The position numbers and the translations under genes were made by a program. A model generated the notes under the pieces. That model was not told the DNA's origin, did not search any database, and saw nothing but the letters and a program-made list of their open reading frames with translations. A stretch of DNA of 64,000 nt, taken from NCBI GenBank assembly GCA_035945435.1, contig DASZAF010000016.1:359-64358 (forward strand), in the 5' to 3' direction. The DNA is from Candidatus Saccharimonadales bacterium (GTDB lineage: Bacteria; Patescibacteriota; Saccharimonadia; Saccharimonadales; DASZAF01). How positions within the stretch are numbered: position 1 is the first letter of the stretch; the number at the start of each line of letters is the position of its first letter. Of this stretch, positions 1-57,557 are shown in pieces.

Positions 1-469
1 TGCCAGCTGTTTTGCCTTTAATCTGCACTCCTCGATACTTCATAAAGTCAGCATCAAAATCTAGTGGGAAGTTGTCTTTAATTAAACGGGGAGTTTGCCG
101 AGCTAGATTAAACATCATAGTAACTGCCCACTCTGCTACGGCCTGAGTTGAGAAGTTCTTGATATTACAAATAGGTATGCCACGCTTATCGGCAGTGTCT
201 TTATCAATATATCCAAAGGCAGTTGAAGCAACTAAAATAGCTTTAAGATTAGGTATATTCTCATAGTCTTTACTTGTGAGCTTCCAACCAATGTAGTCAG
301 GGTTAAGACACAGCAAGCGTTCTTCATTACCAGCGAACAACTCTGGCGTTTCACTCAATGGTTTTACATCAGTTATAACAGTAAGGTCTGCTTTGCTTTC
401 AGCTAATTGTTCCTCAAGCTTTTCATCAACTAACTTTGTCCATAGAGGGTCAAATATAAATACTTTCAT
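1..469 (-). CDS. D-isomer-specific 2-hydroxyacid dehydrogenase family protein (N-terminal part only; the gene runs off the left edge)
   Basis: Not in the ORF track because it is truncated. Reverse-strand translation from the ATG at 469-467 gives MKVFIFDPLW...AILVASTAFGYIDKDTADKRGIPICNIKNFSTQAVAEWAVTMMFNLARQ...GVQIKGKTAG. This is typical of the catalytic-to-NAD-binding domain junction of D-2-hydroxyacid dehydrogenases. Confidence 0.6.
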   Translation of the reverse strand, partial: MKVFIFDPLWTKLVDEKLEEQLAESKADLTVITDVKPLSETPELFAGNEERLLCLNPDYIGWKLTSKDYENIPNLKAILVASTAFGYIDKDTADKRGIPICNIKNFSTQAVAEWAVTMMFNLARQTPRLIKDNFPLDFDADFMKYRGVQIKGKTAG

Positions 470-503
470 GGTCTAATAATACCTTATTTACCGCCTAAAA
501 TTG

Positions 504-523
504 TATAATACAGATAGTAGGAG
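504..523 (+). promoter_or_regulatory. Putative -10 box (TATAAT, 504-509) and Shine-Dalgarno (AGGAG, 519-523) for the DUF4236 gene
   Basis: The motif ttgTATAATa is followed by tAGGAGat, which lies 6 nt before the ATG at 530. Confidence 0.35.
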
Positions 524-529
524 ATATGT

Positions 530-1693
530 ATGTCATTGCGATACCGCAGGTCAATAAGACTAGCAAAGGGAGTAAAGCTTAATCTAACTAAAACTGGTGT
601 AGGCATGACTGTTGGCGGTAAAGGCGCACACTATTCTGTTCATAGTAGTGGACGTCGCACCGCTTCAGTGGGTATGCCAGGCACGGGACTTTACTACCAA
701 AAGCGAACTAGTAGCAAATCACGCGATGCCGTCACACCACGCACGACCACTGCACCACAGCCGAGTGTACATGCTACACCGGCACAGCAAAAACAAGCTA
801 ATGCGATAGGAAGTACAGATGACGCGCTAAAGGTGACAAGTGATAGCTACGCACTATTTCGTACACAACTTACTACTCTGCTTGAATGGCGTAAAGTAAA
901 ACGTGCTGAGGTTACAGAGGCAAAGTCACAGCTTAAAACATTGACTGCTCACTACAATCGAAGACGCGCAATGGTGTTGAAACGATTTTATGTTGACGCA
1001 GAAGCGGCGATGAACCAGCAAGCAGAGGTAGTAGCGTCACTTGAGCAAGAACTCAATGAGAAGTCCATGAGTTTGTCTTTTGCAAATAGTCCACAATTTG
1101 CCAGCACATGGACAGACTGTGTCACTACGTTTAATGAGCTAATGGGGAGCGAACGAGTCTGGGACATCACATACTCAACTGCCGTAAACAAGTTCAAAGA
1201 CCGGAGCGTTGCTAACAATAGCTTCAATCGTACTTTGATACAAGAAACTCCCGAGCCATTGGCATACATAAATAGTGATGTTGACTGCTTAGCATTACCT
1301 GGTGCCAATAATTCAAGTATCTACATTTATCCAACGTTTCTCTTAATCTTTAGGAGTTACCATGAGTTTGGCATCTTCGACTTGAAAGAGGTTCGCCCTG
1401 GAATACATTTGACCAAGTTTATCGAAAGCGAAGGAGTGCCAAAGGATACTGTTGTCGTAGGTCAAACTTGGTATAAGACCAACAAAGACGGTACCAAGGA
1501 CAAACGCTTCAACGGCAACTACCAGATACCCATAGTTCAGTATGGAGAGCTGCTATTTGAGAGTGCTAAGGGACTGCAAGAGTTCTATATGTTCAGCAAC
1601 ATTAAGGCGTTTGCTTCATTTTCAAAGGCGCTTGCAGCACACTACCAAGTAATCGCAAAAACAAAAACTCAAGCAACGGCTATAAGAAGCTAG
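530..1693 (+). CDS. DUF4236 domain-containing protein
   Basis: The N-terminus MSLRYRRSIRLAKGVKLNLTKTGVGMTVGGKGAHYSV matches the DUF4236 signature (basic R-x-x-K-G-V-x-L-N-L-S/T-K-x-G). The C-terminal 200 aa have no family I recognise. Confidence 0.6.
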   Translation: MSLRYRRSIRLAKGVKLNLTKTGVGMTVGGKGAHYSVHSSGRRTASVGMPGTGLYYQKRTSSKSRDAVTPRTTTAPQPSVHATPAQQKQANAIGSTDDALKVTSDSYALFRTQLTTLLEWRKVKRAEVTEAKSQLKTLTAHYNRRRAMVLKRFYVDAEAAMNQQAEVVASLEQELNEKSMSLSFANSPQFASTWTDCVTTFNELMGSERVWDITYSTAVNKFKDRSVANNSFNRTLIQETPEPLAYINSDVDCLALPGANNSSIYIYPTFLLIFRSYHEFGIFDLKEVRPGIHLTKFIESEGVPKDTVVVGQTWYKTNKDGTKDKRFNGNYQIPIVQYGELLFESAKGLQEFYMFSNIKAFASFSKALAAHYQVIAKTKTQATAIRS

Positions 1694-1750
1694 ACGCTAC
1701 TACAGTTGCTTAGCATTAGCCTTCTAAGTGAGGTTTATAATATATATGGT

Positions 1751-3112
1751 ATGAGCGCAAGGAAGAATAGTAAGAAATCTCAAAAAGCATACAAACCAAA
1801 GCCGCCAAAGGTAGGTACTGATGTTGGTGAAGAAGAGAAACGCTATAAAGCATTTACTGAGCTGGCTATAAAAGGCGGTGCTGAACTTCGTAAAAAACTC
1901 AAGTTAAGCGAAGATGCGTTCTCATTAGTCTATGGCCCTAATACTGGTAACCCCAAGAAATACTATCTTACGGGGGTTTTGAATGAAGTCGAAAAGGCCG
2001 GTATGGCCATGATGTATACGGCTGACTTTGTCGTAGAAAGCAAGAAAAAACCAGAGCCAGAAATAACTGACGCTACAGGTTATCGGATTGCGAACAATGC
2101 TATCCAAGTCAAGATTGATGAATTAACAGTTTCTGAGCGAAAGTTGACCGAAACGTTGGTTGACTTAGTGGGTTTTCGGCGCGCAGATGAGGCAGACTAT
2201 TATCGACATTACATCGTACTCCACGAATTAGATGCCAAGAAGAAAATCCAGAATGACATGCATGAGTTTTCAGGAGTGAAGAGTAAAAACCTTGCTTTCC
2301 AGATTGAAGAACTTGAAAAACAAGCTGATGCGCTAGCGGCCAAGCTTGACCCAGCAAAGTGCTGGTATGCCAAGAAGCGTCGTGGCGTTCTGACAAGGAA
2401 TATCAGCACGTTTAGCGAGCGATTTAAAGAAGTTTTCCCTTACATGAAAGAGTATGAACAGGCGACACTTTACACTTATGGCGCATCGTTTGGTAGACAA
2501 AGCGGGTTCCTGCATTCTGGTAAGCCAGTGGAGCGACGTAAGTTAACCCTTAATACTTTAGGTGCACACGTCGGTCGTATTGGCACTTTAGCACCGGGTG
2601 TTCTAACGGCTACAAAAGACCTAGGCCACTTAAACAACGTCAAAGGCATCTTAAAAACTATATCCGACGTAACAAAGAAGAATGATTACCCCATTAAGCT
2701 CTTCAGGCAAAAAACAAAGCCGAAAATAGTTGAGGGTGATTTTGTGGTAACAGTTTGGGGTAGCCTGGGTCAAGTTACAAAAGTTATCAAAAGTAAATAT
2801 GGTTATAAAAGCTTTCGAGTAAAGTACTTAACTGATATGCCCTTACCTGACATGCCGGTTGACGATTTTCCCGCTGAAAATGTTCGATTAGTCTACGCTA
2901 GGAAGCCACTCGTTGAGCAATTAAGGCAAGAAATACATAAGGCCACGCCCGAACTAAAACCTGGTACGAGAGAGCTAAACAAATTGATGACCGAGAGCGT
3001 TTTACACCTATGGAATAACGTCGGTCTCAAGGAGTTCACGCTTAACAACCCGAAAGCTGGTTATGAAAAAATTCAACAGGAAATTGATAGGATAAATTCT
3101 CCCAAGAAATAG
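1751..3112 (+). CDS. Hypothetical protein (453 aa, lysine-rich N-terminus)
   Basis: Long ORF. The ATG at 1751 (MSARKNSKK) is preferred over the TTG at 1706 given in the track. No recognisable domain. Confidence 0.45.
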   Translation: MSARKNSKKSQKAYKPKPPKVGTDVGEEEKRYKAFTELAIKGGAELRKKLKLSEDAFSLVYGPNTGNPKKYYLTGVLNEVEKAGMAMMYTADFVVESKKKPEPEITDATGYRIANNAIQVKIDELTVSERKLTETLVDLVGFRRADEADYYRHYIVLHELDAKKKIQNDMHEFSGVKSKNLAFQIEELEKQADALAAKLDPAKCWYAKKRRGVLTRNISTFSERFKEVFPYMKEYEQATLYTYGASFGRQSGFLHSGKPVERRKLTLNTLGAHVGRIGTLAPGVLTATKDLGHLNNVKGILKTISDVTKKNDYPIKLFRQKTKPKIVEGDFVVTVWGSLGQVTKVIKSKYGYKSFRVKYLTDMPLPDMPVDDFPAENVRLVYARKPLVEQLRQEIHKATPELKPGTRELNKLMTESVLHLWNNVGLKEFTLNNPKAGYEKIQQEIDRINSPKK

Positions 3113-3113
3113 G

Positions 3114-3410
3114 TTACTGACACTGCACTCCACCAACTCCTATTAAGTGCACAATAGACAGCCTAATCATATTTAATAATCCGTGGTCTACTAAGCAGTG
3201 CCCTGTAGCCTGCCTAACGCTGATTATTGACCATATGACGAGGCAGCCTACTAGAGCAAACCATGTAATAAGGTAAACTTTTGTGTCAATTCCTTCTGAA
3301 TGAGAAGGCTTTGAGCCGACTTTTGCCATGATAGTACTTATTAGAAGTGCGATAGCACCGCTAATAAAAACAGTCCCCCAAAATGTTAAGAACAGTACTA
3401 GCAATATCAT
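3114..3410 (-). CDS. Small membrane protein (98 aa, 2-3 predicted TM helices)
   Basis: Hydrophobic segments MILLVLFLTFWGTVFISGAIALLISTIM and VYLITWFALVGCLVIWSII. It lies downstream of the 76-aa membrane protein gene on the same strand. Confidence 0.4.
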   Translation of the reverse strand: MILLVLFLTFWGTVFISGAIALLISTIMAKVGSKPSHSEGIDTKVYLITWFALVGCLVIWSIISVRQATGHCLVDHGLLNMIRLSIVHLIGVGGVQCQ

Positions 3411-3459
3411 ATTATTCCAACCCTGCCTATTACTAGGGTCTGAGTGTATGTGGAGTTCT

Positions 3460-3690
3460 TCATGCTTTCTTACCTGACTGCTTGCGCTTGTTTAAAACCT
3501 TTTGTGCATACACGAGATACACGACAAGTCCAAAAATACTGCATAAAAATCCTATGAATTCCACAAGTAGCGCTTTCGGCATATCGACAGGCAATTTATT
3601 GCGCTTATAGGCTCTGTGGCAGTAAATCCAGAACAGTATAAATGCAATTGCTCCAATACTTTGACCAACTTGCTGTGCATTGCTTTCCAT
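3460..3690 (-). CDS. Small membrane protein (76 aa, 2 TM helices)
   Basis: A strong Shine-Dalgarno (GAGGAG) sits 5 nt upstream of the ATG at 3690. Two hydrophobic helices are present (IGAIAFILFWIY and FIGFLCSIFGLVVYLVY). Confidence 0.5.
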   Translation of the reverse strand: MESNAQQVGQSIGAIAFILFWIYCHRAYKRNKLPVDMPKALLVEFIGFLCSIFGLVVYLVYAQKVLNKRKQSGKKA

Positions 3691-3720
3691 TCAATCTCCT
3701 CTTGAATTTTCCTGCGGCCA

Positions 3721-3748
3721 AAAATAAAAAACGACACCGCAAGGTGTC
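3721..3748 (-). terminator. Intrinsic terminator (minus strand)
   Basis: On the minus strand the sequence reads GACACC-TTGC-GGTGTC followed by GTTTTTTATTTT. This is a perfect 6-bp GC-rich stem with a tetraloop and a U-run. Confidence 0.7.
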
Positions 3749-3853
3749 TAAAGCCATTCACAAGTCAGCTTTCGCCGAAATGCTTATGCGGTGCCGTTTC
3801 TCACGGCGAACCGCAATTAAATTGCGCTTCTGACTTGATAATGACTTTAGACG
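3722..3853 (-). ncRNA. Candidate structured RNA of about 130 nt (sRNA, or cis-regulatory leader of the two small membrane-protein genes)
   Basis: An extended -10 promoter lies just upstream. The helices are nested: 3746-3753/3845-3852, 3755-3758/3840-3843 and 3761-3768/3830-3837, enclosing hairpins 3771-3777/3804-3810 and 3812-3817/3821-3826. An intrinsic terminator follows. There is no ORF on this strand. Confidence 0.45.
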
Positions 3854-3859
3854 TTGGTA

Positions 3860-3868
3860 ATTATACCA
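3860..3868 (-). promoter_or_regulatory. Extended -10 promoter (TGgTATAAT on the minus strand)
   Basis: The reverse complement of 3860-3868 is TGGTATAAT. The predicted transcription start, about 7 nt downstream, coincides with the outer helix of the structured RNA. Confidence 0.45.
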
Positions 3869-3993
3869 TTTACCCCTGTAATCCCCAAGCATAAGCGTAA
3901 AAATAAAACCCCTAGTGCTTGCTGTCTAACCCCTTATACACGAAAATATAGGAACGGGTGTGGGCGAAAACAAGTATGAATATGGGAATGTAA

Positions 3994-4749
3994 ATGAACC
4001 TAAAAGCTCAAGTTAAACATATTGAAGGCAAAAGTTTAGCCTGGCGCAGGCTTGCCGTATTCTTTAGAGAAGAGTCAATCTATGAGCTAATCAAAACCCT
4101 GGGTATTTATTCGCGAAAAGGCTATTTTGAGTATGAGCTTAGGATTAGTAGTGGATACTATGACTGGACACAGGCTCGTCGGGATATACAGTTTCGCACA
4201 GATGTTTTTCAGCCGTCTCTTGGCTTTAAGGGGCTATATCAACAAGACCCCTATGGGTTACATGTTAAAGGCAAGTTACCACTCTCAGAGAAAGAAATAA
4301 ATGAAGTCGTAGAAAAACTGCCGCCTGATATAGCCGAAAAGTATTTATTATTCAGCCTGACAAATATCAATCAGGGCAAATTCATGAAGCTCATTTCTAA
4401 GTTACTAGATGAAAATAGTGCTGACGATGACATATTTTATCCACCAGTTCAGTATCGAGAACTGAAGGTTGATGGTGATGGAATTTATTATAAAAACAAG
4501 CCGTTTGAAATGGACTACCCCCATCGGCAAGCTATGCGTATTTTGATAGAAAAGAAAGGCAAACCTTGCGATTACGAAGATTTTAAGGACGATGACGCAG
4601 GGATTTTTATTAAAAGCATTAGAGAATACCCTAATATCAATCACACCATACGTAACCTTATCTATGAATTACGCGGTGAATTACTGATTAACACGGGTAA
4701 GCGACTTATCGAGAACCATGAAAAAGGTGGCTGGTATCTAGATATTTGA
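3994..4749 (+). CDS. Hypothetical protein with a possible C-terminal winged-helix (OmpR/PhoB-type) DNA-binding domain
   Basis: The C-terminus ...QAMRILIEKKGKPCDYEDF...INHTIRNLIYELRGELLINTGKRLIENHEKGGWYLDI resembles the trans_reg_C pattern (recognition helix plus a terminal beta-hairpin G-x-G-Y/W-x-L). The gene is monocistronic with its own terminator. Confidence 0.35.
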   Translation: MNLKAQVKHIEGKSLAWRRLAVFFREESIYELIKTLGIYSRKGYFEYELRISSGYYDWTQARRDIQFRTDVFQPSLGFKGLYQQDPYGLHVKGKLPLSEKEINEVVEKLPPDIAEKYLLFSLTNINQGKFMKLISKLLDENSADDDIFYPPVQYRELKVDGDGIYYKNKPFEMDYPHRQAMRILIEKKGKPCDYEDFKDDDAGIFIKSIREYPNINHTIRNLIYELRGELLINTGKRLIENHEKGGWYLDI

Positions 4750-4780
4750 CCGCAACTATTACTGACAACTGACTGACCCT

Positions 4781-4810
4781 ACACCCCTCATACTCAGGGG
4801 TGTTTTTAGT
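4781..4810 (+). terminator. Intrinsic terminator
   Basis: ACACCCCT-catactc-AGGGGTGT forms an 8-bp perfect stem and is followed by TTTTTAGTTT. Confidence 0.75.
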
Positions 4811-4819
4811 TTAAGGAGC

Positions 4820-5071
4820 ATGTCTATGGATATGGACGAACCAGTCATTAGAATACACGATTTGGGGCTTGCGGCTGCGCTGGTGAGCCACGACTTCAAG
4901 TTACATGCTACTGACCGTGACCAAAATGGCCGCCTCTACTTTATCTTTAGACAAACTGACAACCTAACTCAAGACATTGACGCATATTGGGCTGACACAC
5001 TCGTCGTTAAGGCGCGGACGTACTCAGACAATATCAAGATGCTTAAATCACGGATTTACGGAGAGCGGTAA
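4820..5071 (+). CDS. Hypothetical small protein (83 aa)
   Basis: The ORF has a Shine-Dalgarno (AAGGAG) upstream. No confident family assignment. Confidence 0.4.
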   Translation: MSMDMDEPVIRIHDLGLAAALVSHDFKLHATDRDQNGRLYFIFRQTDNLTQDIDAYWADTLVVKARTYSDNIKMLKSRIYGER

Positions 5072-5073
5072 CT

Positions 5074-5271
5074 ATGCGGCTCAGTGCAAGTTTAATAGCG
5101 AAGTTTCAGAAAAGGTACTTTGAGACCTTCGGTGAAGCTATTACGGCGGAACTCGCCGAATCGGAGCTGTTGAGTCTTGCCGAGCTGGTAGAGATTACGC
5201 GGAAGTTAGTCAAAGCAACCAATAAGGGAAATGGCAATGAAAAACAATCAAGCACCAAAAACCACAGTTGA
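5074..5271 (+). CDS. Hypothetical small helical protein (65 aa)
   Basis: The ORF starts 2 nt after the upstream stop, which suggests translational coupling. No recognised domain. Confidence 0.35.
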   Translation: MRLSASLIAKFQKRYFETFGEAITAELAESELLSLAELVEITRKLVKATNKGNGNEKQSSTKNHS

Positions 5272-6754
5272 CCAAATAATTGCTGCCTTGACGGAAAGTG
5301 CTGTTAAGCTTTTTCACGACCAGTACAATGAGCCGTATATTGCTTACGACGGCAACGGCAGTAACGTCAGCAAAGTTCATTCAAATATAGCCAAGCTATG
5401 GCTAGTTCACTATTGTCACACCCAGCTAGGCAAAGTTCCTAGCACTGATGCAGTCAACCGTGTGCTGGATACACTGGCGGCACGCGCCCACTTTGACGGT
5501 AAGCAGCATGCTCTGGAAGCTCGCAGCGTCTACAACAAAGAGGGCTTGTGGTACGACCTTGGTGGCAGTGCTGTACATGTCACGCCGGAACGGTGGGAAG
5601 TCATCGAGCAGCCGCCAATCATTTTTAGGCGCTTCTCACATCAAAAACCCCAGGTTGTACCACGGCGCGGCGGAGACCTACGAGCACTCTTAAAGTATGT
5701 CAATATAACCGACGAAGCCGAACAACTACTGTTTCTGGTCTACGTTGTGGCAGCATTTATACCTGACTACCCGCACCCACTCTTAATCCTGCATGGTATA
5801 CAAGGTGCTGGTAAAACTACGCCGATGATGATTATGAAAGACCTGATTGACCCGTCGTCGCTTAGAGAGGGTTTTTCACTGCCCAGCAAAGAGAGTGAAT
5901 TTGCCCAAATCGCCAACCATCATTACTTCTTATTCTTCGACAACCTTTCGACGATGCCCGAAGCGTTTTCTGATACCCTGGCCAGGGCGGTGACTGGCGG
6001 TAGTTTTAGTAAGCGCGGCCTGTACACCGATGACGACGATGTTATCTACCGCTTTCAAAGGACTATTGCCCTTAATAGCATCAACCAGGTGGTCTACAAA
6101 TCCGACCTGCTAGACCGCTCAATCCTTATACATTTAGAGCGCATTAGCGAGGATAAACGCAAGCCGTCCCAGCTTTTCTGGGCTGAGTTTGAGCATGACC
6201 TGCCAGACATACTGGGTGCAATCTTTGATGTATCAGTTAAGGCTCTCGCGTTGCGACCAAACGTTAAGCTCGACAAAGCAACCCGAATGGCCGACTTTTT
6301 ACACTGGGGCTATGCTATTGCAGAAGCAGCCGGATATAGCGGCAAGGCATTCGAGCAAGCTTACTACGCCAACATCGCCACCCAGCATGACGAAGCGATT
6401 GAGGCCAATCCAGTCGCTCAGGCAATCATGGAGTTTATTAAAGACCAGGCAACGTGGACGGGCACGCCATCCGAACTATACGCACTGCTCACCCCGATAG
6501 CGTTCAAACTGGGGGTTAGTAATAGCCGAGGCTGGCCAAAAGATGCACCACGGCTTGGCAGGGTGCTGGAAATCCTAACCCCAAACCTTGCTGCTAAGGG
6601 TATCGTGCTAGAGCGGTCACGCGCTCAACAACGACTAATAACCATAACTAATACTACTGTCGTTACTGTCGTTACTGACGTTACCCCTGTAATAAATGCC
6701 TCTGATGATGACGGTACGACGGCAACGACGGCACAATCGGAGTTTAAGATGTAA
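5231..6754 (+). CDS. P-loop NTPase, phage/plasmid SF3 (D5/P4-alpha-like) helicase family; putative replication protein of the element
   Basis: Walker A is LHGIQGAGKTT and Walker B-like is YFLFFDNLS. Next comes LARAVTGGSFSKRGLYTDDDDVIYRFQRTIALNSIN...DLLDRSILIHLERI. That pattern resembles the D5/P4-type block (lTGgD-x-i-x-R-x-lY...f-x-p...N...d-x-a-x-x-R). Confidence 0.55.
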   Translation: MAMKNNQAPKTTVDQIIAALTESAVKLFHDQYNEPYIAYDGNGSNVSKVHSNIAKLWLVHYCHTQLGKVPSTDAVNRVLDTLAARAHFDGKQHALEARSVYNKEGLWYDLGGSAVHVTPERWEVIEQPPIIFRRFSHQKPQVVPRRGGDLRALLKYVNITDEAEQLLFLVYVVAAFIPDYPHPLLILHGIQGAGKTTPMMIMKDLIDPSSLREGFSLPSKESEFAQIANHHYFLFFDNLSTMPEAFSDTLARAVTGGSFSKRGLYTDDDDVIYRFQRTIALNSINQVVYKSDLLDRSILIHLERISEDKRKPSQLFWAEFEHDLPDILGAIFDVSVKALALRPNVKLDKATRMADFLHWGYAIAEAAGYSGKAFEQAYYANIATQHDEAIEANPVAQAIMEFIKDQATWTGTPSELYALLTPIAFKLGVSNSRGWPKDAPRLGRVLEILTPNLAAKGIVLERSRAQQRLITITNTTVVTVVTDVTPVINASDDDGTTATTAQSEFKM

Positions 6755-6824
6755 CACATAATCAAGATAACAATAAGGGGAAAGATATTTAAGATGCTAG
6801 TCAATAATTTTAAGGAGGTTAGAG

Positions 6825-7091
6825 ATGGACAAATTAAACAATAAAACCGGTATTACTTTTCGCCTACAAGTCAAAGACTATAAGTTCAGAAGTGATGAAG
6901 GCAACACCTTCGATTTTGAAGATTGCACCGATTTGCATAGACTTTTTGCTTGGGCAATCGGCCATGTTGTAGATGAGTATGTATTTGAAGAACTACTTAA
7001 AGGTGATATTTCCAATATAACGATTGTGCTAAGCCCTGATAACTTAAAGGAGGAAGACTTTGTGACCGAAAATACAGGGTATAAGCTCTAA
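6825..7091 (+). CDS. Hypothetical protein (88 aa)
   Basis: The ORF is preceded by the Shine-Dalgarno AAGGAGG. No recognised domain. Confidence 0.4.
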   Translation: MDKLNNKTGITFRLQVKDYKFRSDEGNTFDFEDCTDLHRLFAWAIGHVVDEYVFEELLKGDISNITIVLSPDNLKEEDFVTENTGYKL

Positions 7092-7158
7092 CAATATGGA
7101 GATAGATATGTACGACAACACTTTAATAAGCTATAATATAAATGTTTTCACATCTGGT

Positions 7159-7184
7159 AGACACGCTGTTCGTGTTTTTATTTC
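7159..7184 (+). terminator. Intrinsic terminator-like hairpin
   Basis: agACACG-ctgtt-CGTGTtt is followed by TTTATTT. Confidence 0.45.
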
Positions 7185-7194
7185 TGCTCTTCAA

Positions 7195-7259
7195 GGGCAG
7201 CATGGTGCAGAAAGAAGCGAATAGCGACTGGATGTGAAAACAGCCATGCTGTCCTTTTT
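7195..7259 (+). promoter_or_regulatory. Long-range hairpin plus T-run immediately upstream of the recombinase gene (possible attenuator)
   Basis: GGGCAGCATGG (7195-7205) pairs with CCATGCTGTCC (7244-7254) over 11 bp, including one G-T pair, with a 38-nt loop. TTTTT follows at 7255-7259, 16 nt before the ATG at 7275. Confidence 0.35.
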
Positions 7260-7274
7260 GATAGGAATAAAACC

Positions 7275-8924
7275 ATGAACTACTCAGAACTAAAATTTGC
7301 CTTGTACGCCCGTAAGTCCACCGAGGACGAGGGTAAGCAGGTTCAGTCTATAGAAGACCAGATACACTATATGCGGCAAAAAGCTGATGACTGTGGTATA
7401 AAGCTAAAACGCAAAGACATTATCACCGAGGAGAAATCCGCTAAGGCACCTGGTAAACGGCCGAAGTTTTTGCAACTAATTGCTGACATCAAAGCCGGTA
7501 AGTACAACGCTATAACCTGCTGGCAGACCAACCGCCTGGCTCGTAACCCCGAAGAAGCGGGTATTATCCAACAACTACTGCAAGACGGAATTATCAAGTG
7601 TATTGTGACCAGTGACCGAACTTACTACCCCGAAGACAATGCTGTGGTGTTTGCTGTAGAGATGAGCATAGCCAATCAGTTTGTCCGCGACCTTATGAAG
7701 AATGTCCGCCGTGGCATGTATTCCAAAGCCGAAAAAGGCTGGTACCCTGGCAGGCCACCAATCGGCTACAAAAACGACCGTGAGGAGAAAATCATAATTG
7801 AAGACCCTGAGCGCTTTGATATGGTGCGCCGTATGTGGGACATGATGCTGACTGGTACCTACACCGTTAAGGCAATCGGTGAAATTGCCGATAAAGAATG
7901 GGGCTTACGCACTATCAAGCGCAAGAAAAGCGGCAATAAACCGCTGTCTTACAGTGGTGTTTATGATATGTTCCACAATCCCTTTTATAAAGGCGTCATA
8001 CGCTACGGTGGTACAGAAAACCCTGGCAAGCATACAGCAATGGTTACCGAGGAAGAATATGACCGCGTGCAAAGCCTTATACACACCAAACTACCGGAAC
8101 GGGCAAAGAATAAGGAGTACATCTTTGCTTTTCGTGGCATGCTTAAGTGCGGTGAGTGTGGCTGCTCTATAACACCGCAACATACCGTGACCACTAAGAA
8201 AAGCGGTGTTGTTCATGAGTACGACTATTACCGCTGCACACTCCGCCGCCGTGATTATAAATGCACCCAAAAGAAGTACCTAACCGAAGACAATCTCAAC
8301 GAGCAGATTAAGCAGGAGCTAAAGACGCGCACCATCATGCCACGCTTTTATGAGTTGGCAGTTATGGCTTTGCAAGAAATGAATGAAGATAAAATCACCA
8401 AGCAGATTAAGGTGAGCGAAACGCAGAACAAGGCCATTGTCACCAAAGAAACCGAAATCCGTGAGCTTGGCCGCATGCGCTACCGTGGCGAGTGTCCTGA
8501 TGATGAGTTCTACGCCTCTGAAAAGGATAAGCTTGACCAAGAACTCAAAGACCTCAAGAAAGCCCGTGAGAAAGCTGAAAAACGAGCTAATGACTGGCGA
8601 GCTGTAGCAGACGAAACTTTTAGCTTTGCCCGTTATGCCGAAGAAGACTTTAATAGCGACAGCCTTGAGAATAAACGGAAGGTCTTGGCAAAACTCGGTC
8701 AGAACCTCACGCTGCTAGATGGAAAAATCCATTTTACCCCTAATAAATACATGGTGCCGGTGCAACAGGCATATCCAGACCTTGCAGCCCGCTTAGAGGC
8801 CGTTAGAAACGCCCCACAACAGATACGAGAACGGGTTGAAGCAGAGGTCAAATCTGAATGGTACACCCGGCAGGATTCGAACCTACGACCTTCGGCTCCG
8901 CAAGCCGACGCTCTATCCAGCTGA
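7275..8924 (+). CDS. Large serine recombinase (resolvase/invertase N-domain, recombinase domain, zinc ribbon, coiled coil)
   Basis: The N-terminus KFALYARKSTEDEGKQVQSIEDQ carries the catalytic Ser motif. Also present are WQTNRLARN, a Cys-rich zinc ribbon (LKCGECGCSITPQ...YYRC) and a coiled coil. Codons 529-549 (8859-8921) are the antisense of tRNA-Arg. Confidence 0.9.
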   Translation: MNYSELKFALYARKSTEDEGKQVQSIEDQIHYMRQKADDCGIKLKRKDIITEEKSAKAPGKRPKFLQLIADIKAGKYNAITCWQTNRLARNPEEAGIIQQLLQDGIIKCIVTSDRTYYPEDNAVVFAVEMSIANQFVRDLMKNVRRGMYSKAEKGWYPGRPPIGYKNDREEKIIIEDPERFDMVRRMWDMMLTGTYTVKAIGEIADKEWGLRTIKRKKSGNKPLSYSGVYDMFHNPFYKGVIRYGGTENPGKHTAMVTEEEYDRVQSLIHTKLPERAKNKEYIFAFRGMLKCGECGCSITPQHTVTTKKSGVVHEYDYYRCTLRRRDYKCTQKKYLTEDNLNEQIKQELKTRTIMPRFYELAVMALQEMNEDKITKQIKVSETQNKAIVTKETEIRELGRMRYRGECPDDEFYASEKDKLDQELKDLKKAREKAEKRANDWRAVADETFSFARYAEEDFNSDSLENKRKVLAKLGQNLTLLDGKIHFTPNKYMVPVQQAYPDLAARLEAVRNAPQQIRERVEAEVKSEWYTRQDSNLRPSAPQADALSS

Positions 8925-8935
8925 GCTACGGGTGC
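8859..8935 (-). tRNA. tRNA-Arg (anticodon GCG), CCA encoded
   Basis: The minus strand reads GCACCCG-TA-GCTC-AGCTGGATA-GAGC-G-TCGGC-TTGCGGA-GCCGA-AGGTC-GTAGG-TTCGAAT-CCTGC-CGGGTGT-A-CCA. This folds into a cloverleaf with U33, G37 and a TTCGAAT T-loop. Confidence 0.85.
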
Positions 8936-9049
8936 ATATGGTGCAGTCAGACGCAGATGTCTGCTGCATGTCAGTAAAAGGTACTTCCCGCGTGAGGGCG
9001 GGACTGACAAGAATATATCACAGGTTACCCTAAAAAAACAGGGGTAGTA

Positions 9050-9742
9050 TTAGAAGCGGAGCTTGCGAGACAGTCGGTCGACTGCGTCGAACTTGTAGTT
9101 CTCCATGGGCAAGAAACGGCTCAGCACATCGACAATCTTCTCGCCCTGACCTTCCTCAAAGTAGATAGAGAGCATTGGTCTGAACCTGGCATTAGGACGG
9201 AGCAAGATGCTCCACAGGCCGCCATCCTTAACGATTCCGAATGAGTGGAAGTCGTTGAACTTATAGATTCTCTCACCAATATGAAGACCAGTCCCATCAA
9301 TTGCGTAATGGAGAACACGCGGTTTCCTAACGCCGACGACACCAATGGCCACACACATAATCGCTGAACCAATTGCCATAAACCAATCACGAAGGATAAA
9401 GACACTGAAGAGAAGAAGCGCCACTACAAAGACGCCGAAAACGACAAACCAACTGGCCGGTTTTTCGTGATCTATAAACTCTGAGGCCTCCCACGAAACT
9501 TTCTCCGCTTCAGTAAACGTAGGCTTGGAGATCGTAGGGGCTTCGTCGTCTTCATCGGCCGGGTCATCAGGCGTTAGCAGAGCTGCCGGCAGACCGTCAT
9601 GGCCGACCGGGGCCACCTCGTCATCCTGAGTAGGTGCGTCGTTGTGGGTCGCCGACGCATCAGTCGAGGCCGGTGCCATTTTGTCGTCACCACCCTCAGT
9701 ATCTTTCTCCCAGTAGCCGTGCTCATCTCCTGGTTGCTGCAT
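9050..9742 (-). CDS. Membrane protein with an acidic N-terminal region, two TM helices and a C-terminal bacterial PH-like domain
   Basis: The start was moved to the ATG at 9742 (MQQPGDEHGYW) because the track start at 9844 lies inside tRNA-Ser. The TM pair is WFVVFGVFVVALLLFSVFIL / AIGSAIMCVAIGVVGV. The tail resembles YdbS/bPH-type domains. Confidence 0.5.
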   Translation of the reverse strand: MQQPGDEHGYWEKDTEGGDDKMAPASTDASATHNDAPTQDDEVAPVGHDGLPAALLTPDDPADEDDEAPTISKPTFTEAEKVSWEASEFIDHEKPASWFVVFGVFVVALLLFSVFILRDWFMAIGSAIMCVAIGVVGVRKPRVLHYAIDGTGLHIGERIYKFNDFHSFGIVKDGGLWSILLRPNARFRPMLSIYFEEGQGEKIVDVLSRFLPMENYKFDAVDRLSRKLRF

Positions 9743-9812
9743 ATAGGTAAAGTATATCACTAATGCCGCGAACGCCGCATAGACGACACCATGACAGTTG
9801 ATTGCAAATGTA

Positions 9813-9905
9813 TGGCGGAGAGGGAGGGATTCGAACCCTCGCACCAGGTCACCCCAGTCTAACGATTTAGCAAACCGTCCCCTTCAGCCTCTTGGGTACC
9901 TCTCC
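9813..9905 (-). tRNA. tRNA-Ser (anticodon GCU), class II with a long variable arm, CCA encoded
   Basis: The minus strand reads GGAGAGG-TA-CCCAAGAGGCTGAAGGG-G-ACGGT-TTGCTAA-ATCGT-(21-nt variable arm)-GAGGG-TTCGAAT-CCCTC-CCTCTCC-G-CCA. Confidence 0.85.
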
Positions 9906-9971: not shown

Positions 9972-10059
<88 letters not shown>

Positions 10060-10844: not shown

Positions 10845-11285
10845 CTAGCTGTTGGCTGAAGCGGCAGCCGAGACGTTCCCAATGACGAAGTGGACGATAA
10901 TCTGGGCAAAGATGACGATAATCAATCCGACTACGGCGTAGATAATCGTGTTCTTGGCATTCCCAATCTGCCCCGAATCACCACCTGAGACGATGTATCT
11001 GAATCCTCCGATGATGATCATGACGACAGAGACGGCGCCGATGATGAATGAGAGGATGTTAATCGCGCTCTTTACGACTGAGTTAATGCCTGTGTTGTTG
11101 TTGCTCTCACAAGTACTTGTCCCCGAGGAGATGACACCGTTACAGACGCCACCTTGGATGGGGTTGTTACCGTTGAGTGCTGCGTATGTGGCAGTGGCGG
11201 GTACCAGCGAGACCACAAAGAGAGAAAGGAACGTTGCCATGCTGACGGCAATAATCGTTCTGAACTTTTTAACAGCATTTACCAT
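10845..11285 (-). CDS. T4SS pilin-like protein (TrbC/VirB2-like), paralog 1
   Basis: The protein has a signal peptide and a short Cys-containing exposed region. These are followed by the shared block INILSFIIGAVSVVMIIIGGFRYIVSGGDSGQIGNAKNTIIYAVVGLIIVIFAQIIV, which is helix, G-G-x-R-Y-x-x-S-G-G-D loop, helix. It has its own Shine-Dalgarno (AAAGGAG). Confidence 0.7.
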   Translation of the reverse strand: MVNAVKKFRTIIAVSMATFLSLFVVSLVPATATYAALNGNNPIQGGVCNGVISSGTSTCESNNNTGINSVVKSAINILSFIIGAVSVVMIIIGGFRYIVSGGDSGQIGNAKNTIIYAVVGLIIVIFAQIIVHFVIGNVSAAASANS

Positions 11286-11381
11286 ATCTTTAAAAGCTCC
11301 TTTGTTGCTGATTTTTCTTCATTATATATCACTAATGTTAGGTTTGCACTAGTCTAGATCTGATCGGTGTGTTAGCTATCG

Positions 11382-11789
11382 CTATTGGGTGACTTTGCCG
11401 ATGACGAAGAGAACGATGATTTGAGCAAAAAGAGTGATGGCAAGACCGACCATGGCGTAGATAATCGTGTTCTTGGCACTGGAGATGGCATTTGAGTCGC
11501 CACCCGAAAGAACATACCTCATGCCCCCGATTATGAGCATGATAACGGAGGCCGCGCCGACGATAAATGAGAGCAGATTGAGTGTATCCTTGATAAGCTG
11601 CGGCACCGACTGACCTTTTCCGACAGCACCAGTGTCGTTGAGGCCTTTTTGGGCATCGCCAACCGAATCAGCCAATACAGAATGAGTGCCACTTGGCAAC
11701 ACAATAAGAATCGCAGCCACGAGCAGACACGCTCCGGCAATCAGTCCTAGTCTTTGGTATGGTGAGAGCCTGGCAAGTGCGTTTCTCAT
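11382..11789 (-). CDS. T4SS pilin-like protein (TrbC/VirB2-like), paralog 2
   Basis: The shared block here is LNLLSFIVGAASVIMLIIGGMRYVLSGGDSNAISSAKNTIIYAMVGLAITLFAQIIV. An N-terminal TM/signal segment is present. Confidence 0.7.
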   Translation of the reverse strand: MRNALARLSPYQRLGLIAGACLLVAAILIVLPSGTHSVLADSVGDAQKGLNDTGAVGKGQSVPQLIKDTLNLLSFIVGAASVIMLIIGGMRYVLSGGDSNAISSAKNTIIYAMVGLAITLFAQIIVLFVIGKVTQ

Positions 11790-11851
11790 ATCTTTCCTCT
11801 ATCTCCGTGCCTTTCTATGCTGGTTATTATAGCTTATATCTTGTCACTGGA

Positions 11852-12280
11852 TCATAAATAACCCAGCACGAACTGGATGATGGCGGCCCCGAAGACAGCA
11901 ATTACCAGACCAGCCAAACCATAGATAATAGTATTCTTGCCGCTTTTAGTCCCTGACGGGTCACCGCCAGAGAGGACGTACCTCAAGCCACCGATTACCA
12001 TCATAAAGACCGAGATAACCGCAACGAAGTAGATAAAGACGCTCAGAAGAGTGGCGAGCACTCCGCCTTTACCGAGAATCCCGCCTCCTTTTTGTGCCTC
12101 ACAGACAGTTGCTCCAGGGTTGCTTTTACAGACACTCTGACCACCACCGGCGCCGAAGATGTCGAACGCATATGCAGGCGCCAAGCCTCCAAACTGCACA
12201 ACGGCAGTAACTGCCAGCACAAAAGTTATAGCCCAGGCTTTCAGGTTGAAGATTTGTCTTTGTAGATTCATATGTCTCAT
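11852..12280 (-). CDS. T4SS pilin-like protein (TrbC/VirB2-like), paralog 3
   Basis: The shared block here is VFIYFVAVISVFMMVIGGLRYVLSGGDPSGTKSGKNTIIYGLAGLVIAVFGAAII. A signal peptide ends in AYA. Confidence 0.7.
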   Translation of the reverse strand: MRHMNLQRQIFNLKAWAITFVLAVTAVVQFGGLAPAYAFDIFGAGGGQSVCKSNPGATVCEAQKGGGILGKGGVLATLLSVFIYFVAVISVFMMVIGGLRYVLSGGDPSGTKSGKNTIIYGLAGLVIAVFGAAIIQFVLGYL

Positions 12281-12291
12281 TCTATTCCCAC

Positions 12292-13044
12292 CTACAGTCC
12301 CGTGCCGAGCACAAAGCCAACTATAACCTGCGCGAAGAGTGCAAAGATAAGTCCAACTACTGCATATATAATTGTCTCTTTCGCTTGCTTAAGAGTGCCT
12401 GGGTCACCACCTGAACGGGTATAGGTGAGACCACCCCAAACAACCATGATGGCTGCCAGTACCGCTACGATCTGGAAGACAAGAGTCAAGATAAAAGCCA
12501 AAGTGCCGGCTTTGACGGCACCGGGGTTCGGCAGCCCGGAAGCCGCGTCAATCTTGGCTGCAAATTCACCGGCGATAAAGCCGATGATTCGAGCGGCCGT
12601 CACGGTAATGACAAGGCCAACAAGGGCATTCACGATAGTGTTACGGGCGTCGTTGATACTATTCGGCGAGCCAGCGCTGGTGGTATAGCGAATGGCGCCC
12701 CATATGACGAAGCCGACTGCTAAGATAGCGGAGAGTCGTAACAATATCTCAAAGACCGCAGCCACAATCAGCCAGATGCCGTCTGGTCCTGAGATAAAGG
12801 GCCTGCATTCCGTGCCTCCTCCATTGACGTTAACCTTGGTGCCTTGCAGGTATTCATACCAGGTCGGAAAAGCCAAAAAGCCAGTGTCTTGAGCAAGACT
12901 ACAAGGAGCGGGGTTGGTCATGTTGAAGAGAACATTAACCGGACTAGCTGCACGCGCAGGCATGACAACAACGAAGAGGCCCATCACCAGACCCAGGAGA
13001 CTGCCCGAGAGCATGATCCAAAGGCGAAATCGCATTGACATCAA
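12292..13044 (-). CDS. Tandem-duplicated (two-domain) T4SS pilin-like protein, paralog 4
   Basis: One 250-aa ORF contains two copies of the pilin block: ...VGFVIWGAIRYTTSAGSPNSINDARNTIVNALVGLVITV... and ...IMVVWGGLTYTRSGGDPGTLKQAKETIIYAVVGLIFALFAQVIV. Confidence 0.65.
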   Translation of the reverse strand: MMSMRFRLWIMLSGSLLGLVMGLFVVVMPARAASPVNVLFNMTNPAPCSLAQDTGFLAFPTWYEYLQGTKVNVNGGGTECRPFISGPDGIWLIVAAVFEILLRLSAILAVGFVIWGAIRYTTSAGSPNSINDARNTIVNALVGLVITVTAARIIGFIAGEFAAKIDAASGLPNPGAVKAGTLAFILTLVFQIVAVLAAIMVVWGGLTYTRSGGDPGTLKQAKETIIYAVVGLIFALFAQVIVGFVLGTGL

Positions 13045-57482: not shown

Positions 57483-57557
57483 TCCGGGGTAGCTCAATGG
57501 TAGAGCGTTCGACTGTTAATCGAATGGTTGCGAGTTCGAGTCTCGCCCCCGGAGCCA
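57483..57557 (+). tRNA. tRNA-Asn (anticodon GUU), CCA encoded
   Basis: The sequence reads TCCGGGG-TA-GCTC-AATGGTA-GAGC-G-TTCGA-CTGTTAA-TCGAA-TGGTT-GCGAG-TTCGAGT-CTCGC-CCCCGGA-G-CCA. Confidence 0.88.

Follow-up and report, generated by a model that had tools for sequence, protein, structure and literature searches.

The bacterial attachment site (attB) of the Myxococcus phage Mx8 overlaps tRNA-Asp genes. The phage attachment site (attP) lies within the integrase coding sequence, and integration is reported to create a recombinant gene with a new 3' end, whose product has a different C-terminus and changed enzyme properties (IntP/IntX; PMC6070905; Tojo et al. 1996 in PMC4383910). Here we describe a recombinase gene that reads into a tRNA-Arg gene at positions 7275-8935 of a 64,000-nucleotide stretch from a Candidatus Saccharimonadales bacterium (contig DASZAF010000016.1; this whole stretch is called the window), together with its relatives in the candidate phyla radiation (CPR, or Patescibacteria). 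Taken as a whole, the locus is probably best explained by a serine integrase with attP built into the end of its own gene, insertion at the tip of a tRNA gene and a consequent swap of the C-terminus, in which 7275-8935 would represent attR, the right-hand junction of a small integrative element that entered at the 3' tip of tRNA-Arg(GCG). Judged by architecture, Mx8 IntP is the closest analogue, as both appear to carry attP inside the integrase open reading frame (ORF) and to have the C-terminus changed on integration. In contrast, Mx8 is a single phage whose integrase belongs to the tyrosine recombinases and uses a large attP, whereas the CPR clade is a family of large serine recombinases across hundreds of CPR species, with 6-9 bp shared between the junctions and exchange placed at the CCA/discriminator end of the tRNA.

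Other described systems share parts of this arrangement. In archaeal fuselloviruses of the SSV type the integrase gene likewise lies across attP and tRNA genes are the targets (PMC4383910), but the enzyme is a tyrosine recombinase and its gene is split in two on integration, whereas in the CPR clade the exchange would be confined to the last ~15-30 codons, leaving the catalytic and DNA-binding domains whole. The serine integrases of phiC31, Bxb1, A118/LI and SPbeta (SprA) have the same domain set as the CPR clade (resolvase, recombinase, zinc ribbon and coiled-coil insert) and little sequence common to the left (attL) and right junctions; the sites of the canonical enzymes lie in protein-coding genes or between genes, whereas those of the CPR clade lie in tRNA genes. 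To our knowledge, attP of canonical large serine integrases lies outside the integrase ORF. According to reviews, site-specific serine integrases insert within genes and disrupt the target (PMC5704250). Tyrosine-integrase islands of the Islander class resemble the CPR elements in that the 3' side of a tRNA gene is targeted and restored, the integrase stands beside an intact tRNA gene, and tandem arrays occur. They carry a long fragment of the tRNA gene and an attP of ~250 bp, with the crossover in the anticodon loop, in the T loop or where T arm and acceptor meet, and only tyrosine integrases are stated to be known to target tRNA genes (PMC4383910). The present locus falls outside the Islander definition, as the window holds neither a tyrosine integrase nor such a fragment, and the 'fragment' of the relatives is only TGG plus 3-6 nucleotides (nt). 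In mycobacteriophages with integration-dependent immunity, attP reportedly lies inside the repressor gene and integration is said to alter the C-terminus of the product; there a repressor is altered and the integrase is of the tyrosine type, whereas in the CPR clade the recombinase itself would be altered. A likeness to systems with attP inside a regulatory gene had been proposed in an earlier note on this DNA; it holds in that attP lies inside a gene, but the gene crossed is the recombinase and not a repressor. A literature search returned no description of serine recombinases with tRNA targets or of such enzymes in Saccharibacteria or CPR, which is not proof of absence. What is new here is the combination of serine-integrase chemistry, a tRNA target and attP within the enzyme's own gene; attP inside an integrase gene is already known for tyrosine recombinases.

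The recombinase gene and its overlap with tRNA-Arg(GCG)

The ORF at 7275-8924 on the plus strand is intact, has 549 amino acids and ends in VKSEWYTRQDSNLRPSAPQADALSS before the stop codon in the ORF listing of the window. It encodes a complete large serine recombinase with catalytic, recombinase and zinc-ribbon domains (Pfam PF00239 Resolvase, residues 9-155, 2e-16; PF07508 Recombinase, 181-270; PF13408 Zn_ribbon_recom, 286-350), and it matches PHROG 95, 'integrase', at 1e-66. By sequence alignment the closest solved structures are those of the SPbeta integrase (9dxh, the nearest) and the A118 integrase. The motif R13-K14-S15, within which the presumed catalytic serine lies, is invariant in 35 family members, and the AlphaFold model of a homologue (P0083) has two long antiparallel helices, residues 360-407 and 414-464, that correspond to the coiled-coil insert. 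By Pfam and PHROG the serine enzyme is the sole recombinase of the window, where no tyrosine recombinase was found; no recombination directionality factor was recognised, the small ORFs adjoining the integrase being without family matches in the same two databases. There is no exact match to the window integrase on record.

The minus strand at 8859-8935 carries a tRNA-Arg(GCG) gene of 77 nt with an encoded CCA and a G1.U72 wobble pair atop the acceptor stem (ARAGORN), which would be the target of the integrase and form the B' side of the junction. Codon 529 of the recombinase, TGG at 8859-8861, is preceded by 528 codons ((8859-7275)/3) and is the reverse complement of the encoded CCA. From this codon the ORF runs for 66 nt antisense to the tRNA, including its stop codon at 8922-8924. 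The earlier note had described both the complementarity and the 66-nt overlap, and the coordinates and ARAGORN agree with it. The reach of the ORF is slightly greater than the acceptor, T-arm and anticodon stem it had named: the overlap spans the 3' strand of the acceptor stem, the T arm, the variable loop and the entire anticodon arm and extends into the D arm. The stretch at 8859-8924 (plus strand) thereby encodes a tail, WYTRQDSNLRPSAPQADALSS, which is an antisense translation of the tRNA, is 21 amino acids long, ends in ALSS and, by comparison with the homologues, would be specific to the integrated form. Conservation of the protein had been thought to end near 8740. It does not: F487, P489, K491, Y492, P495 and V510 are conserved in at least 90% of the family, and W529 is invariant.

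The chance of 22 open codons is ~(61/64)^22 = 0.35, which is unremarkable for a single locus; the overlap is non-random because it recurs across the family. Rather than stopping ahead of the tRNA, the counter-case envisaged in the earlier note, 107 of the best 120 homologues (46-85% identity) have W..[DEG][SL]N at the C-terminus, which is what the acceptor and T arm of a tRNA give when translated antisense. Of the 85 recombinase ORFs scored in the fetched loci, 64 have their stop codon within a tRNA gene on the opposite strand, with the TGG complementary to CCA in frame in nearly every case. When one genome per species was scanned, a relative turned up in at least 585 species genomes, nearly all of them metagenome-assembled genomes of CPR/Patescibacteria, and related recombinase genes were also found on IMG/VR viral contigs. 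The occupied tRNAs cover 12 amino-acid specificities: Arg (GCG, CCG, TCG), Asn, His, Trp, Glu, Ile, Asp, Ser, Gln, Leu, Tyr and Pro. Both nearest relatives, L002 (85% identity) and L001 (77%), sit on tRNA-Arg(CCG), an isoacceptor other than that of the window.

Junctions in the relatives and in the window

Both junctions were located in 11 relatives, L001 and L002 included, with attL 3.5-11 kb upstream of the integrase and element sizes of 3.5-11.1 kb from one junction to the other. It can be seen that attL consists of host flank, then TGG plus 3-6 nt the same as the tRNA end, followed by the conserved P' arm. In all 11, attL and attR are identical over no more than 6-9 bp (TGG, discriminator and 2-5 nt), and over 6-8 bp in the eight other than L001, L002 and L006. 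Such short identity is expected of a serine integrase and unlike the long tRNA-gene repeat of tyrosine-integrase islands. The blocks include TGGTAC in L001 and L002, TGGTACACC in L006 (which occupies tRNA-Arg(GCG), as in the window), TGGCTCC in L010, TGGGGT in L018 and L074, TGGCAGG in L042, TGGGGTG in L052, TGGTACCG in L061 and TGGCTC in L067. Because attL and attR disagree in the bases that directly precede TGG, strand exchange would lie within TGGNNN. The P arms of L033 and L035 are identical through TGGGGT and then part, one into P' and the other into tRNA-His. The P' arm stands directly after the integrase at seven places (L033, L053, L057, L096, L093, L094 and the IMG/VR viral contig L003). 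The common core thus lies inside the overlap of ORF and tRNA in the 11 relatives, where a core outside it had been the second counter-case of the earlier note.

Three candidates were rejected. A crossover at +8/+9, suggested by the symmetry of the P and P' motifs, would fall on bases at which 7 of the 11 attL/attR pairs disagree. A weak similarity of B and P arms, AAATCT, was considered as a recognition motif, but several B arms are what is left of the 3' ends of older integrase genes after tandem insertions. A 21-nt T-arm-like repeat at L001:3834-3854 was considered as attL; it is without the CCA/acceptor end, and the true attL is at 3931, 77 nt to the right. This fragment, GCCCAAAAGGATTCGAACCCC, resembles a tRNA T arm and acceptor, stands just upstream of the start of an aldo-keto reductase gene and may be an old remnant.

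In the window, GC content and gene order mark positions 1-8858 (plus strand) as the right-hand part of an integrated mobile element whose left end would lie beyond the window. This part encodes DUF4236 and DUF5659 proteins, unannotated ORFs and the integrase; its GC content is ~40-45% over 1-5000 against 49-56% right of the tRNA. The order DUF5659, ~65 amino acids, 355-505 amino acids, small ORF, integrase is common to L001 and L002, and the gene order of the window element recurs in a Logan contig from another sample (L086). That contig, reached via a neighbouring ORF, was the only matching outside contig and adds 358 nt with a 2-hydroxyacid-dehydrogenase-like gene and no attL. Host DNA right of the tRNA is marked by a terminator-like hairpin at 8986-9003 (minus strand) that belongs to the upstream host gene at 9050-9844 (minus). 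The window contains no second copy of the tRNA 3' end and no displaced tRNA fragment, and searches of 1-8858 by core, P' motif and tail-peptide patterns found no attL-type site. From the attR and attP junctions of the relatives, the P arm of the window would be the last integrase codons before W529, at 8834-8858 (plus strand). With L001, L002 and L006 as guides, the core is predicted as TGGTAC(ACC) at 8859-8867, complementary to CCA, the discriminator and the first acceptor bases, with exchange placed within the first 6 bp. We expect the missing attL to read as host flank followed by TGGTACACC and GTAGTGAAGCAAGTCAGAGA, and the same three relatives suggest an excised-form tail of KSE followed by WYTVVKQVRDLI.

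Two C-termini and how they may be read

To obtain the C-terminus of the excised form, attP was reconstructed by joining P (from attR) to P' (from attL). The reconstructed attP and the attR forms give unlike tails in 11 relatives. As the core lies inside the overlap of ORF and tRNA, everything after W-x(-x) is read from the tRNA gene when the element is integrated, and from its far end, P', when it is excised. The excised-form tail has 15-30 conserved amino acids with the family pattern W-x-x-[VI]-[VI]-x-[DEQ]-V-R-T; it begins WYTVVKQVRDLILADC in the nearest relatives and reads, up to the stop codon, WYTVVKQVRDLILADCDAFISV in L001, WYTVVKQVRDLILADCNAELALT in L002, WQDVVRDVRTIIQQRKGYIYIPTLV in L042 and WGHIVEVVRTAIANMPPCSFIPDYQS in L074. 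The integrated-form tail has 3-43 amino acids whose sequence is set by the tRNA that was hit, for example WGG, WQGR or, in the window, the tail ending in ALSS. On these reconstructions attP is inside the integrase ORF and integration changes the C-terminus in the 11 relatives. A state-dependent tail had been conjectured in the earlier note; junction reconstruction bears it out in the relatives, and for the window itself it is inferred from L001 and L002.

Several observations suggest that the excised-form tail is read as protein. A 29-nt P' sequence, TGGTACACCGTAGTGAAGCAAGTCAGAGA, is identical in L001, L002 and eight metagenomic attL sites. In these 10 sites of the Arg group the integrase frame is open for 18-27 codons (10/10), although the attL stretch there belongs to no gene. 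Pairwise differences among them, counted past the 26 nt used for selecting the sites, fall 52:32:135 on the three codon positions, with 107 synonymous against 59 non-synonymous codon pairs, and close pairs in other subfamilies have the same bias (0:1:5, 1:1:4 and 4:5:11). The frame is open for at least 12 codons in 22 of 22 genuine sites scanned. A motif [YS]-[IF]-x-[IV]-P, ~20 amino acids after W, is common to elements on His, Trp and Leu tRNAs; at 55-70 nt from the core it is farther out than a serine-integrase half-site normally reaches. There is thus moderate evidence that the tail is translated and under purifying selection.

The mechanism that we favour would run as follows. The 3' end of the integrase gene would contain attP, with the last ~25-45 nt before the invariant Trp codon as P arm, and strands would be exchanged within the 6 bp TGGNNN, complementary to CCA, the discriminator and two acceptor bases. 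Because the exchange would lie there, the tRNA could be rebuilt with only 6-9 bp of shared sequence. The circular element would express an integrase with the conserved tail from the P' arm, presumably the native enzyme, and the integrated element the same enzyme with this tail replaced by an antisense-tRNA translation of tRNA-dependent length and sequence. By analogy with Mx8 IntP, the prophage-form protein may be altered in activity or stability, favouring stable residence, and the 3' end of the integrase mRNA, which would be complementary to an abundant tRNA, may lower expression further.

How much the swap itself does is a separate matter. It is possible, and we suggest it tentatively, that the tail encoded by the attachment site serves as a built-in state sensor, the circular form being competent for integration and the prophage form having a different directionality, activity or stability along with an mRNA 3' end antisense to an abundant tRNA. 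Somewhat unlikely in our judgement is a neutral swap in the same architecture, in which attP overlaps the gene end through compactness, both tails are dispensable, and the conservation is that of the P' DNA binding site. The integrated-form tails fit a neutral swap: at 3-43 amino acids without common sequence they are clearly not selected. So does the position of the first ~8 codons after W, which fall on the conserved P' motif GGATGTTCGAACC or its equivalents. A neutral swap is harder to reconcile with the mostly third-position variation past ~+27 nt, outside a typical 25-bp half-site, with the open frames at all 22 genuine sites scanned and with the pentapeptide motif that the His, Trp and Leu elements have in common.

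Two further readings deny the architecture and are far less probable. A classical tRNA island, with a long copy of the tRNA 3' half, a crossover well inside the tRNA at its T or anticodon loop and an element-encoded tail that is the same in both states, follows the rule for tyrosine-integrase islands (PMC4383910) and could point to the T-arm-like fragment of L001. It is very improbable, as the enzyme is a serine recombinase, the window has no second tRNA 3' copy, the junctions of 11 relatives have only 6-9 bp in common, and the L001 fragment lies outside the true attL. That the recombinase is a resident, immobile host gene beside the tRNA, its overlap unrelated to recombination, would agree with the excised form not having been observed directly. 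We give this little credence, since close relatives stand at different tRNAs (Arg GCG, CCG and TCG, Asn, His, Trp and others), cargo and element size vary (3.5 to 11 kb from attL to attR), one and the same tRNA may bear tandem copies and decayed remnants, GC content shifts at the tRNA, related genes are on viral contigs, and the same genome has an unoccupied tRNA-Asn.

Against the integrase with attP in its own gene and a swapped tail, which remains the preferred explanation, stand several points. No circular attP molecule was recovered: an exact search of IMG/VR for free attP gave nothing, the eight sites from a metagenome scan were all attL, the resolvable attP-type junctions are tandem arrays, and L093 and L094, short contigs with attP-type tails, have no terminal overlap. 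The junctions place the 2-bp crossover dinucleotide no more closely than within TGGNNN. The excised-form tail of the window is extrapolated from relatives because the element's own attL lies beyond the window start. Part of the tail conservation must reflect the P' DNA site and not the peptide; the codon-position bias weakens as the pairs diverge (58:50:78 overall, the distant pairs being saturated); and AlphaFold gives the tail of an attP-form homologue no confident placement (predicted local distance difference test 38-68 after residue 517). These last two points also favour a neutral swap. An effect of either tail on activity, and an mRNA that reaches into the tRNA, may be conjectured.

Terminators, tRNA targets and the family of elements

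Most relatives have a GC-rich hairpin in the last ~45 nt of the integrase gene before TGG (e.g. L002, L006, L012, L023, L045 and L055). On the tRNA strand it starts 8-16 nt past CCA and is followed by a T-run, the A-run of which on the coding strand accounts for a conserved 'MKK/RKK' peptide. A strict terminator rule picked out 35 of 64 loci against 32 of 640 control windows. Stem positions were paired in 77.6% of cases against 55.5% in shuffles, and the stem covariation score was 0.503 against 0.185, a value reached in 0 of 500 shuffles, with slid controls at 0.12-0.23. The element thus appears to supply a replacement tRNA terminator from within its own coding sequence, which would limit antisense read-through in most relatives. 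The hairpin is absent from the window (8790-8858) and from L001; in the window, tRNA read-through would therefore be antisense to the integrase. The proposal of the earlier note that convergent transcription could couple recombinase expression to that of the tRNA may be kept as a conjecture.

The GCG anticodon, which the earlier note had singled out as uncommon in bacteria in place of ACG, is indeed present and is found at other loci as well. The 39 tRNA-Arg genes of the fetched CPR loci comprise 11 GCG, 6 CCG, 3 TCG, 18 TCT, 1 CCT and 0 ACG, so that tRNA-Arg(GCG) is the norm of the lineage. A motif scan confined to the window, with no wider search made, found no tadA. Position 72 was compared in the occupied tRNAs of the window, L001, L002, L006, L045, L055, L085, L061, L011, L012, L013, L036, L042 and L063. 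Occupied tRNA-Arg genes have U72 opposite G1 in 7 of 7 cases (core TGGTAC) and unoccupied tRNA-Arg(GCG/CCG/TCG) of the same loci C72 in 13 of 13; G1.U72 is also seen in Leu, Glu and Trp tRNAs that are occupied. As the A is present in the attL copies too, and the tRNAs next to homologues P0053 and P0006 have TGGTGC, target choice and a change imposed by the element are indistinguishable. CCA is encoded in only 100 of 172 tRNA genes of the fetched loci yet in nearly all occupied targets, which is consistent with TGG as part of the recombination core.

The unoccupied tRNA-Asn(GTT) of the window, at 57483-57557 (plus strand), has an encoded CCA. It may be an empty attB in the same genome, because Asn(GTT) is the commonest target among Saccharibacteria relatives (12 loci). 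Other features of the host side are two adjacent tRNA-Ser genes on the minus strand, at 9813-9905 and 9972-10059 (GCT and TGA), with an identical 29-nt 3' end, and, at 10845-12385 (minus), three tandem paralogous ORFs of ~135-146 amino acids with hydrophobic C-terminal halves, which share an 88-nt repeat family of 61-76% identity.

In the family, elements accrete in tandem. Newer elements enter between an older integrase and the tRNA, and the arrays of L096 and L033/L076 have new copies inserted at the tRNA-proximal junction. The older copies are displaced and decay, leaving several attL-type sites and integrase 3'-end remnants that then act as the B arm (L096:10001-20037; L033 with L076 on the same contig; L006:2736 and 3878; L042:491 and 3083; L061:222 and 901; L010:616 and 1674). 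A minimal element, L074:8030-11575, measures ~3.5 kb from attL to attR and holds the integrase, a ~200-amino-acid ORF and one cargo ORF of ~180 amino acids on the opposite strand. Some carriers of a CPR-type integrase beside a tRNA bear the label Gammaproteobacteria, Methanosarcinaceae, Nitrospinota or Chitinophagales (e.g. L071 OZ246416.1, L073, L057 and L053), and one chromosome labelled 'Gammaproteobacteria' is only 886 kb; they are probably CPR sequences that received a wrong label or bin, and not true hosts.

A whole serine-integrase clade on tRNA genes of 12 specificities, in at least 585 species genomes, contradicts the published generalisation that such genes are targets of tyrosine integrases only (PMC4383910). 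It indicates how a recombinase that uses a few bp could occupy an essential tRNA gene without harm, by exchange at the CCA/discriminator tip and, in most members, by bringing a new terminator. For annotation it carries a caveat: these integrases are called with spurious tRNA-derived C-termini, and the tails in databases depend on the integration state. The family would also be a natural case of a serine integrase whose C-terminus is rewritten by its own reaction, which makes a role of the tail in directionality or stability testable. We know of few genetic tools for CPR/Patescibacteria, Saccharibacteria included, and short-site integrases with predictable tRNA targets are candidates for such use. 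If the tail does act as a state sensor, this clade would be the first among serine integrases to have specialised on tRNA genes; it would also have evolved a replacement tRNA terminator inside its own coding sequence and would offer a ready set of short-site integrases for CPR.

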